A stretch of DNA of 15,821 nucleotides from positions 1-15,821 of IMG/VR virus record IMGVR_UViG_2537562194_000030; one strand, given 5' to 3'. Shown here one piece after another: positions 12,001 to 15,000 of this stretch. Positions within the stretch are counted from its first letter, which is position 1. The number at the start of each line of letters is the position of its first letter. The position numbers are program-made. Origin of the DNA: a virus. Lineage: Duplodnaviria > Heunggongvirae > Uroviricota > Caudoviricetes.

Positions 12001-15000
12001 GGCAGAGTACTAAAGATATTGATGAGTGGATAAAAGATGAACGGATAGTATATCCCTCAAGGGTGATCAACCAGGAGATTGATAATTACTATTTTCAAAA
12101 AAATGCAAAAATTTCCACTGAAGAGAGGCAAAGAGTCTTTTTTCTTGTGAGCCAGGAGAATCAACTAACCCTTGATGTTAAGGCAGCACAAAGTTCTATT
12201 AATCATGTAATAATGGGGAGTGCTTCTTTTGGCAAGAAAATGGATGCTCTTTGTGATGGTATGAGCCGGGATGTAAAAAATCGTACATCAGATACCATAG
12301 CAAACTTGCTTGCGGACAAGTTTTACCAGAAACATATCGATTCGGATATTGATATTGTAAAACTACGAAATGATATCCCAGATTATTTGATGCGTGCTAT
12401 ACAGGGATGAGGCTAGAGGAGAGGACTGCTTCAGCATCATCGGCTTCGGACCAGTAAAAGAGACGCAGAAAATGCACAACGGCACCACACGCCATGCATG
12501 GATTCAGATTACTCATGGCTCACCAGTACAGCTATAAATCGTAAAGAAAACTACAGTACGTTATACACAGAAACGTACCGTGATTCATTATTTATTGTAC
12601 AGGTTCATCGCAGCGACAATATTTTGTGATGTTTGCGTGGTGCGCCCCACTTCAGGATGCTGCAGATCTGGAAATTGCAACGGAGGAAGAAACCTCATTG
12701 CTGGAAGCCTAGAAAAAGTATCGGGTGTTGCTGAACCGTGTTGATACATCAACTGCACCTGATATTGAGTGGCCGGAAGAACCAGACACAATGTAAGCGA
12801 AAAAGAAAAACCGCAGACACGACGTATGCAGGACGTGCTGCGGTTGGCTGGTGAACTTTCGATAGTGCGAGTATTGAATGATTTCCAGCCGTTACCGATT
12901 TTACGTGTTAATTAGTGAACAAACCACTCGTCAGCAGACTTCCAGGTATCTTTCAGAGTCTCCTGAACAAAAGTTTTAGCTGAATCTTTATCGGCGGTGC
13001 GCGTAACAGAAAGGCCATCGTTGCTGGTGGCTTTTACGATCACCTCTACATCGTCATAACGTTTACTGATGCGTCGGGTTAATTCTTCCTTTAACGCATC
13101 CACAGCACCGTTTGGCATTTTAGTCATTTTCTCTTTGGCTATGCAGATTTCAATACGCATAAAAATCCCTCTATACTGTGTTTGTATACAGTATTATTTT
13201 TATCTGTATAAATAAACAGTGTCAAGAGGTCTTGTTTCTGCTCTTTTGGAGTTCTTCAAAACGATTATGTAAAGATTTCGGATACAGTTCGGTATATACC
13301 TGCCATAGCACGTTTAATGAACGATGCCCTGTAACTTGAGCGACTTCCTCAATACTAAAACCAGCCTCAAATAAGCGACTTGCCCCTTCTCTACGCAAAT
13401 CATGATATCGCAGATCTTTAATACCTAATTTGCTTCTTACCCTCTGAAATCCTGCGGTAACAGAAGTGCTGTTATATGGAAAAATGAATTCTGATTTTTT
13501 TGGTTGTCGCTGGACGATATCCCAGGCTTCCCCAAGCAAGGCAACTTTCATATGGTTACCTTCCTTTTTACGTGGATCTTTCCTATCTCTTACTAGTATA
13601 GATTTTTGTTCTTGGTCGAGATCTTCCCATCGTAACCGGCATACTTCTCCGATTCGCATACAGGACCACACAGAAAATTTGAGGATATCAACGAACGGAA
13701 TTTTTGAGCATTTATGAGTAGATCGTTGTTGAAGGCCTTCAATGAGCATGTCAAGTTCATCAGATGCTGGTCTACGATTACGACGGTTTGATTTACCAAT
13801 CAAACCGAGTTTAAGTAGATATGGACGAGCGCTTTTCGCCGGGTTTGATGTGTAATTGATTCCGTATACAGGTTTTGCCGCATCCAGAACACTGCCAAGA
13901 TAACTAACATCGTGGCTGACTGTTGCTGGGCCTGCACCAGCGTTGTTTCTTAGCCTGCAATGTTCAATTACGTCATTTTCTGTCAGTTCAGATAGTTTGA
14001 TCGCGGATATGTCACTATCCATAAGCAGTTCCAGCACATATCTTTTAGTACGGCCTGCTTTACCTCCGGCATTTGGGTCATTTAAATATTTGTGTAGTAA
14101 GTCACGGACTGTAAGTCCGTCAACTGCATTTGATGATGGAATGCCATATAGATCTAATTCCATCACTTTCTGTGTGCCCCATGTTTTGGCATGAGCATGT
14201 TTAGGGAATGTTTTGCTTTCCCTGTAAGTGATAACACCTTTTTCTTTGATAATCACATTACAGCGATAGCGTGGTGTGCCATCGGATTTTAGTCGTTTCT
14301 CTATGTTATAGTACGCCATTACACGACCTCGTTATTTCGGGTTCCCATAAAACGTGGGAACCTGTGCGGGAACCTAACGCGAGAAAAATAGCCTGAAATG
14401 TTCAAAAATGCACGATAATCATGAAGCACAAAAAATTAATCAAACCAGCGTGATGCCTGAAAAAACTGGTGTTTACTGGAATTCTCGGTTTAGCATTGCT
14501 CCTATGCTCGACTGGACGGACAGACATTGCCGCTATTTCTTGCGTCTGCTTTCCCGCAATACGTTGCTGTATACCGAAATGGTGACCACAGGGGCGATTA
14601 TTCACGGTAAAGGTGATTACCTGGCGTACAGTGAAGAAGAACATCCGGTAGCGTTGCAACTCGGCGGTAGCGATCCGGCGGCGCTGGCACAGTGTGCGAA
14701 GCTGGCAGAAGCGCGTGGATATGATGAGATCAACCTGAATGTCGGCTGCCCGTCTGACCGGGTGCAGAACGGCATGTTTGGTGCGTGTCTGATGGGTAAT
14801 ACGCAGCTGGTTGCCGACTGCGTGAAAGCGATGCGCGATGTGGTGTCGATTCCAGTGACGGTGAAAACGCGTATTGGCATCGATGACCAGGACAGCTATG
14901 AATTTCTCTGCGATTTCATCAACACCGTTTCCGGCAAAGGCGAGTGTGAGATGTTTATCATCCACGCACGTAAAGCCTGGCTTTCGGGGTTAAGTCCGAA

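Follow-up and report, generated by a model that had tools for sequence, protein, structure and literature searches.

A prophage junction within the dusA 5' end, with its candidate integrase arm sites

A prophage boundary inside dusA

How much of a bacterial gene can belong to the phage that lies next to it? The question is raised by a 15,821-nt stretch of tailed phage DNA (positions 1 to 15,821 of IMG/VR record IMGVR_UViG_2537562194_000030; hereafter the window), in which a tyrosine integrase gene and the tRNA-modification gene dusA point away from each other near the end of the phage sequence. We conclude that positions 14320-14540 of the window are almost certainly the attR of a lambdoid prophage of ~44 kb, integrated in the 5' end of dusA. 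To the left of an 8-bp core in this interval, the DNA is entirely that of the phage, and it comprises dusA codons 1-32 together with any promoter located there. An earlier note, made from the sequence alone, had proposed a prophage in this position that supplies the N-terminal codons of DusA, an integrase divergent from dusA at a distance of 88 bp, a protein unlike that of Escherichia coli K-12 over its first ~30 codons and identical thereafter, and a core within 14490-14540. These proposals held. The spacer at 14320-14407 is exactly 88 bp, nine of the first 30 DusA residues differ from K-12 (strain TG1) against a single one in the remaining 315 (A132T), and the crossover could be located at 14504-14511.

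Five sequences were aligned on the core ATGCTCGA: attR from the window, attL from strain 95NR1, attB from K-12 strain TG1, and attP, which was read directly in the free phages mEp460 and SKA5. Over the 100 bp to the left of the core, attR is 92% identical to attP of mEp460 and 80% identical to K-12 attB; over the 100 bp to the right, it is 33% identical to attP and 100% identical to attB. The corresponding values for attL are 82% and 100% with attP (left and right, respectively), and 100% and 33% with attB. The core itself is identical in all four comparisons. The quartet is consistent, with attR combining the left side of attP and the right side of attB, and attL the left side of attB and the right side of attP. 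Matching flanks are thus 92-100% identical, while non-matching flanks have 33% identity on the right side of the core and still ~80% on the left, where the phage and K-12 5' modules are related. Against the other E. coli allele (B2 type, see below), identity in the 100 bp left of the core, which includes the phage module, is 39%. This four-site comparison places the crossover within 14504-14511, that is, in codons Met33, Leu34 and part of Asp35. The core is found at both prophage ends, with imperfect similarity running past it, and agrees with the site published for phage 1720a-02 in Citrobacter rodentium (PMC6328086).

Alignment to an uninterrupted dusA allele and a search for the matching att copy at the other prophage end, both suggested in the earlier note, gave the breakpoint described above and a second prophage end. 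No matching copy was found within the 15.8-kb window. It lies 44,127 bp upstream of attR in 95NR1, an O111 outbreak strain with 100% identity to window positions 13200-15821. The gene order at this attL is zur, a yjbL-yjbM pseudogene, a 35-codon dusA fragment annotated as truncated, and phage genes; the displaced dusA fragment is of the K-12 type and is joined to phage DNA at the core. We took attL from this close relative because the best complete genomes (O111 strains 95NR1 and 95JB1) match the whole window with only 89% coverage, at 98.8% identity.

The 5' module also occurs outside lysogens. In ten free phage genomes, similarity to the window extends from the integrase up to ~14508-14513, which is at the core or a few bases off. 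Phages mEp460, SKA5, Lys8385Vzw, 1720a-02 and others have the integrase together with the spacer and dusA 5' module, followed by attL-side phage sequence, and the SKA5 record labels a 123-nt phage open reading frame (ORF) as "tRNA-dihydrouridine". Conversely, the alignment of prophage-free genomes to the window begins only at 14405 or 14495, and the first 100 bp of the host-derived part of dusA match K-12 at 100% and the B2-type allele at 98% identity. As free phages carry the module and attL holds the displaced K-12-type end, the N-terminal codons of DusA are supplied by the phage. The integrase is found beside dusA in 734 of 5,426 complete E. coli genomes, and in 80 genomes attL is built on the B2-type host allele.

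A related prophage in strain MS20657 (L087:875 and L087:42742) also sits in a B2-type dusA allele. It encodes the binding subunit of a subtilase-family AB5 toxin and a scabin-related ADP-ribosyltransferase, and its att cores at both ends are ATGCTTGA, one base off the window core. Lysogens in the B2-type allele were tried as a means of placing the strand exchange more closely, but with a T in both attL and attR of MS20657 they are uninformative without the attP of that phage.

Integration almost certainly went as follows. The dusA-associated tyrosine integrase recombined attP with a chromosomal site at the Met33-Leu-Asp codons, with strand crossover inside the 8-bp core. Since attP has a 96-bp surrogate dusA start directly to the left of the core, the resident 5' end is moved to attL and the phage copy fused in frame. 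The product is a full-length DusA of 345 residues, nine of them altered near the N-terminus, and in the lysogen the signals for starting dusA transcription and translation must be on phage DNA. The N-domain of the integrase is predicted to bind five repeats, three in the spacer and two in the P' arm, to build an intasome, while excision would need a PrtN-like homologue of the excision factor RdfN, encoded near attL.

Several observations weigh against parts of this account. The attL sequence is that of 95NR1, and the genome of the window itself is absent in full from the collection searched. In the 95NR1 prophage, the portal gene is frameshifted, the tape-measure gene is interrupted by a stop and insertion sequence (IS) fragments are present; this prophage may no longer be able to make particles. 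A consensus scan of both strands of 14200-14560 found no sigma-70-like promoter, and DusA could start at the ATG at 14453 instead of that at 14408. For the integrase, the fold match to lambda Int is that of the whole protein rather than the N-domain alone, and Pfam detected no arm-binding family in residues 1-70.

Of the other explanations, the one that survives best is that the junction is a frozen relic: a defective prophage with an immobile integrase/att module, whose dusA start is now simply that of the host. The pseudogenes and IS fragments of the 95NR1 prophage fit this explanation, and the K-12 allele suggests that fossilisation of the same kind occurred earlier. However, the prophage retains an intact integrase ORF and RdfN homologue as well as two intact att sites, and even a defective prophage can still excise. 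We infer that the element is mobile today and regard a relic as unlikely on balance, if a serious contender. The RdfN homologue is a PrtN-family gene near attL in 95NR1 (L004:22173-22454, outside the window; Pfam PyocinActivator, E-value 3e-23). It and the integrase gene are at opposite ends of the 95NR1 prophage and become neighbours only across attP, after excision. Two small ORFs were observed between attP and the PrtN-like gene (L004:21222-22454).

Transcription and translation start of the hybrid dusA

With ~44 kb of phage DNA upstream of 14504 and the nearest upstream genes on the other strand, the dusA transcript must begin on phage DNA. The 88-bp spacer must likewise contain or flank the start signals of both the integrase gene and dusA. 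The phage-borne dusA promoter that the earlier note envisaged is thus made plausible by topology and by the precedent of IMEVchUSA3, an element of Vibrio cholerae that brings a new dusA promoter (PMC8409611). In that system, a dusA-lacZ fusion in E. coli K-12 was still expressed after integration, at a lower level (PMC8409611). As to the position of the promoter, the proposal gained nothing from the consensus scan of 14200-14560; a terminator scan of the same interval found nothing either. Hand-fitted -35 and -10 hexamers on either strand were unconvincing, and we did not take them as sites.

Translation could alternatively begin at the second ATG (14453, Met16), which would make codons 1-15 an untranslated leader or promoter DNA. 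The ancestral-type dusA allele starts at the position equivalent to Met16, and the NCBIfam DusA equivalog match begins at residue 19. Moreover, ATGCACGANAAT, the sequence at the first start, is kept even at synonymous positions, which suggests a signal at the level of the nucleic acid. Set against this, all examined loci of this class have ATGCAC a whole number of codons (96, 87 or 78 nt) upstream of MLDWTD, and translated examples have no stop from MLDWTD back to ATGCAC, although the intervening sequence is highly variable. Initiation at Met16 therefore appears unlikely, and we favour the ATG at 14408 as the start of DusA. No Shine-Dalgarno sequence is evident before either ATG.

The conservation of ATGCACGANAAT (window 14408-14419; equivalents in L025-L077) is seen in ~20 loci from different genera, where it includes synonymous positions and a fixed distance of 96 nt from the core. 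In the more general form ATG CAC GAN AAT, it is found 96 nt, or sometimes 87 or 78 nt, from the core, and change is close to saturation in the intervening codons. This pattern suggests that ATG CAC GAN AAT acts as a nucleic-acid-level signal, which could serve in translation initiation or in the binding of a protein to the P arm.

The integrase and the GGGAACC repeats

The integrase is closely related to those of known phages, with 96-97% DNA identity to the integrase genes of mEp460, SKA5 and 1720a-02. More divergent homologues upstream of dusA are 68-72% identical and spaced 85-89 bp from it in Mixta, Pectobacterium and Morganella, while Xenorhabdus has a frameshifted copy (55% identity) at 88 bp from dusA. 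The catalytic residues R222, H306, R309, H332 and Y342 show no change, or at least 90% conservation, across 34 homologues. INT_Rci (cd00796) is listed as a conserved domain in the mEp460 record.

An AlphaFold2 model built with these 34 homologues (mean predicted local distance difference test score, pLDDT, of 85) has three domains: an N-domain, followed after a linker by a core-binding domain and a catalytic domain. Three strands (residues 2-9, 15-25 and 28-37) followed by one helix (40-57) make up the predicted N-domain at residues ~3-58, where pLDDT is 86-92. Complete lambda Int structures align to the model over 357-369 columns, and the 75-356 fragment, which is without the arm-binding domain, over 293. 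With E-values of up to 10 allowed, Pfam gave only a weak Int_N match, at 72-165, in a search of integrase residues 1-196.

Three copies of GGGAACC lie inside 35 bp of the spacer between the integrase gene and dusA, and six in the window, where 2.05 would be expected. In a 3.7-kb stretch of mEp460, TGGGARCC occurs four times against an expectation of 0.16, and all four copies flank the core. The mEp460 attP contains five GGGA(A/G)CC sites, including the copy CGGGAACC. The three sites on the P arm, one inverted and two direct at 12 bp from each other, lie ~130-165 bp to the left of the core and are the part seen in the window; the two on the P' arm lie in tandem, spaced by 11 bp, at ~50-70 bp on the right-hand side of the core, and are at attL in the lysogen. 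The same layout of one inverted and two direct repeats, at the same offsets, was found in four other loci with a homologous integrase facing dusA. Here the repeat reads GGGGTGCTG in Mixta, GGGGTGC in Morganella, GGTGTCC in Pectobacterium and GGTGTAC in Xenorhabdus. The equivalent spacer between integrase and dusA is 78-90 bp in related elements, and the 60 N-terminal residues of the integrase vary in step with the sequence of the repeat, although few elements were compared.

The earlier note had offered arm-type sites as one possible role of the GGGAACC repeats, and this idea gains support from the copies in the P' arm, the layout kept in other elements and the N-domain of the model. On the strength of sequence comparison and modelling, the repeats are probably arm-type integrase sites, and their positions suggest where the integrase assembles on attP. 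Alternatively, they could control the two divergent starts, as promoter elements or as operators to which a regulator or RdfN binds. Their placement in the 88-bp spacer, which must accommodate both start regions, would suit such a function, as would the combination of inverted and direct repeats and the lack of a Pfam arm-binding domain in the integrase. An operator function in place of arm binding is nevertheless rather improbable. The motif is also present in tandem across the core, in a part of the P' arm without an integrase or dusA start, the repeat changes along with the integrase N-domain, and the N-domain of the model is lambda-like. The two roles are not mutually exclusive, and arm-type sites may additionally serve the divergent start regions as operators.

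These elements may well have a fixed and previously undescribed attP plan in common within their Enterobacterales branch; it would consist of one inverted and two direct arm repeats, the conserved ATGCACGANAAT start and the 96-nt module. We found no prior statement of the arm-type repeats, nor of the K-12 fossil discussed below, in the searchable literature, the coverage of which excludes subscription journals.

The dusA 5' end of K-12

Two dusA 5' ends occur in E. coli and are mutually exclusive. The B2-type allele has zur directly beside a 331-aa dusA that starts with MPAESHTVYPAYRFSIAP, and is found in 1,123 of 5,426 genomes (~21%), for example in strain DA33135. The K-12-type allele, found in 4,297 genomes, combines the yjbL-yjbM pseudogene with a 345-aa dusA that starts with MHGNSEMQ. 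The existence of two such different alleles without this prophage could be taken to mean that the first 30 codons in the window are ordinary allelic variation in a fast-evolving host segment, next to which the integrase merely happens to lie, but the exact module in free phages, which stops at the core, and the resident allele displaced at attL have already refuted this reading and leave it practically no probability.

The phage origin of the module in the window being observed directly, we can ask where the K-12 5' end came from. Between the two E. coli types, identity is 98% on the right side of the core and 32% over the 100 bp on its left, and the codons that adjoin the core on the left all differ at synonymous positions. 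The K-12 5' end and the phage module are 84% identical over 116 bp. The corresponding segments of K-12 TG1 (L001:1396-1603) and DA33135 (L002:2860-3012; window 14405-14511) cannot be aligned, and the boundary of this divergence falls on the att core. The shorter, 331-residue type has an N-terminus like that of Enterobacter, Kluyvera, Phytobacter and other genera. In Enterobacterales, a start of the form MH(E/D/Q/G)N is found with a full upstream integrase (L053, L055 and L059), with a frameshifted one (L064), with truncated integrase stubs (L058, L075 and L077) or with no integrase. The collinear position in K-12 still matches the first codons of the integrase gene at 15/19. An nhmmer profile of eight integrase-dusA spacers detected decayed spacers in three loci without integrase (L071, L063 and L060).

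The decay of the integrase forms a series in its own right, in which the first 19, 43 or 92 codons are kept beside an intact element-type dusA start. The stubs are at L058:2800-2856, L075:2378-2653 and L077:2716-2844. Further loci of the series, upstream of dusA, are L074, L063 and L060, and some loci retain the spacer alone.

These patterns point, with slightly better than even probability, to the first 32 codons of K-12 dusA, and probably the promoter region too, being the fossil of an earlier dusA-specific element, the integrase and cargo of which decayed and left the yjbL-yjbM pseudogene; the direction of transfer is one that we infer. Other results weigh against a fossil. The spacer profile did not detect the K-12 and Kosakonia spacers, and because it missed K-12, the argument from the region upstream of dusA comes down to the 15/19 match. 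A tblastn search of the K-12 region upstream of dusA with the integrase gave no significant remnant. The supposed K-12 cargo is not tied to a living element, since tblastx of the yjbL-yjbM region against the other loci found nothing. Finally, two Yersinia loci have an MHEA start with zur only ~350 bp away, and for this reason the MH(E/D/Q/G)N start is an imperfect marker of element origin. Durand et al. treat the K-12 dusA end as native and report an N-terminus of identical length and 61% identity for the Vibrio element (PMC8409611).

K-12, the comparison allele of the earlier note, is thus not a naive reference, as its own 5' end may be element-derived. If the fossil is real, ~79% of E. coli strains express DusA with an N-terminus derived from an element, and the target that present-day phages enter and push aside is itself an older surrogate. 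The K-12 dusA gene, the "native" reference for expression and for DusA biochemistry, would then perhaps already have an element-type N-terminus and upstream region.

Gene content of the window

The features of the window are collected in Table 1. The main value of the analysis is a clean annotation of this sequence as the attR of a prophage that carries type III secretion system (T3SS) effectors in an O111-like enterohaemorrhagic E. coli genome, the crossover being placed within 8 bp. The effector cargo (window 9241-12410) has the tail-fibre genes on one side and the integrase gene on the other, and includes a truncated DUF1076 gene. A DinI-like gene is at the equivalent position in mEp460 and SKA5. 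The whole-window match to complete genomes falls into three pieces, so that, at 89% coverage, the tail-fibre mosaic differs from that of any complete genome searched. From the J/Lom region to the tail-fibre C-terminal gene (window ~7000-9100), gene coordinates in 95NR1 are shifted by ~263 bp relative to the window.

Table 1. Features of the 15,821-nt window (positions are those of the window).
Feature	Position	Strand	Basis or remark
Right arm of lambdoid prophage: tail genes, Lom-like gene, tail fibre, effector cargo, DinI-like gene, integrase, P arm of att	1-14511		95NR1 annotation, O111 whole-window match and start of prophage-free homology
espW, T3SS effector	9850-10908	-	95NR1 annotation
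NleG-like DUF1076 gene	10987-11637	-	
espM2, T3SS effector	11820-12410	+	
DinI-like gene beside integrase gene	12912-13160	-	Pfam DinI, E-value 1e-18
dusA-associated tyrosine integrase, 365 aa	13222-14319	-	Pfam Phage_integrase, E-value 1e-20, residues 189-346
Integrase-dusA spacer, 88 bp, distal P arm of attP	14320-14407		
GGGAACC, inverted copy, candidate arm-type site	14340-14346	-	
GGGAACC, first direct copy, candidate arm-type site	14356-14362	+	
GGGAACC, second direct copy, candidate arm-type site	14368-14374	+	12 bp after first
dusA, intact ORF, 345 aa	14408-15445	+	Pfam Dus, E-value 1e-104
Phage-borne dusA 5' module, codons 1-32	14408-14503	+	Found in free phage genomes
att core ATGCTCGA, 8 bp, crossover region	14504-14511	+	Common to attR, attL, K-12-type attB and attP
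Host-derived rest of dusA	14512-15445	+	NCBIfam DusA equivalog, E-value 2e-168
pspG, host gene 3' of dusA	15579-15821	+	95NR1 and K-12 annotation

Comparison with known systems

The arrangement of a prophage in dusA is correct and already known, including from almost identical E. coli phages, as published dusA elements match the window and all testable features of the family were found in the window or in the prophage of its relative 95NR1. Farrugia et al. (2015) established the class of dusA-associated integrases, with members in more than 200 genomes; they described replacement of the 5' end, semi-conserved 21-bp att repeats and a prtN homologue in 64% of the islands, and listed eight E. coli elements in a table (PMC4482086). 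The nearest characterised relative by sequence is reported to be Rci (PMC4482086). The islands have, as here, a divergent integrase beside dusA, a 5' insertion, direct repeats at both ends, a prtN homologue and an element-supplied 5' end that includes beta-strand 1. There is no essential difference from the window prophage, and the paper does not contain arm-type repeats or fossil 5' ends (PMC4482086).

For IMEVchUSA3, Durand et al. (2021) showed that the element provides dusA with a new promoter as well as a new N-terminus, and that the PrtN-like RdfN, encoded across attP from the integrase gene, is the excision factor (PMC8409611). Like the window prophage, IMEVchUSA3 integrates at the dusA 5' end. 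In contrast to a prophage, it is a mobilisable island that needs IncC plasmids and is regulated via AcaCD. SXT, which integrates at prfC, differs in integrase, target gene and type of element. The present system resembles lambda Int and its attP in that the three-domain integrase model aligns over its full length to lambda Int, and in having repeats distinct from the core on both arms of attP. It differs in that sequence identity is only 16-18%, and in that here the arm sites are putative and the excision factor is PrtN-like and parted from the integrase gene by attP.

The closest published counterpart is 1720a-02 (phi-Stx2dact), which integrates 100 bp into dusA of C. rodentium and carries a phage-borne in-frame ORF (PMC6328086). 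Its core was given as 7 bases, with GCTCCCATGCTCGACTGGA as attB, and the re-formed attP was sequenced (PMC6328086). The integrase, spacer and dusA 5' module of 1720a-02 are 96.6% identical in DNA to those of the window, and the core is the same. The integrase-side junction that we call attR is named attL in that study (PMC6328086). The two differ in host and cargo: 1720a-02 carries Stx2, and the window prophage instead has espW, espM2 and nleG-like genes.

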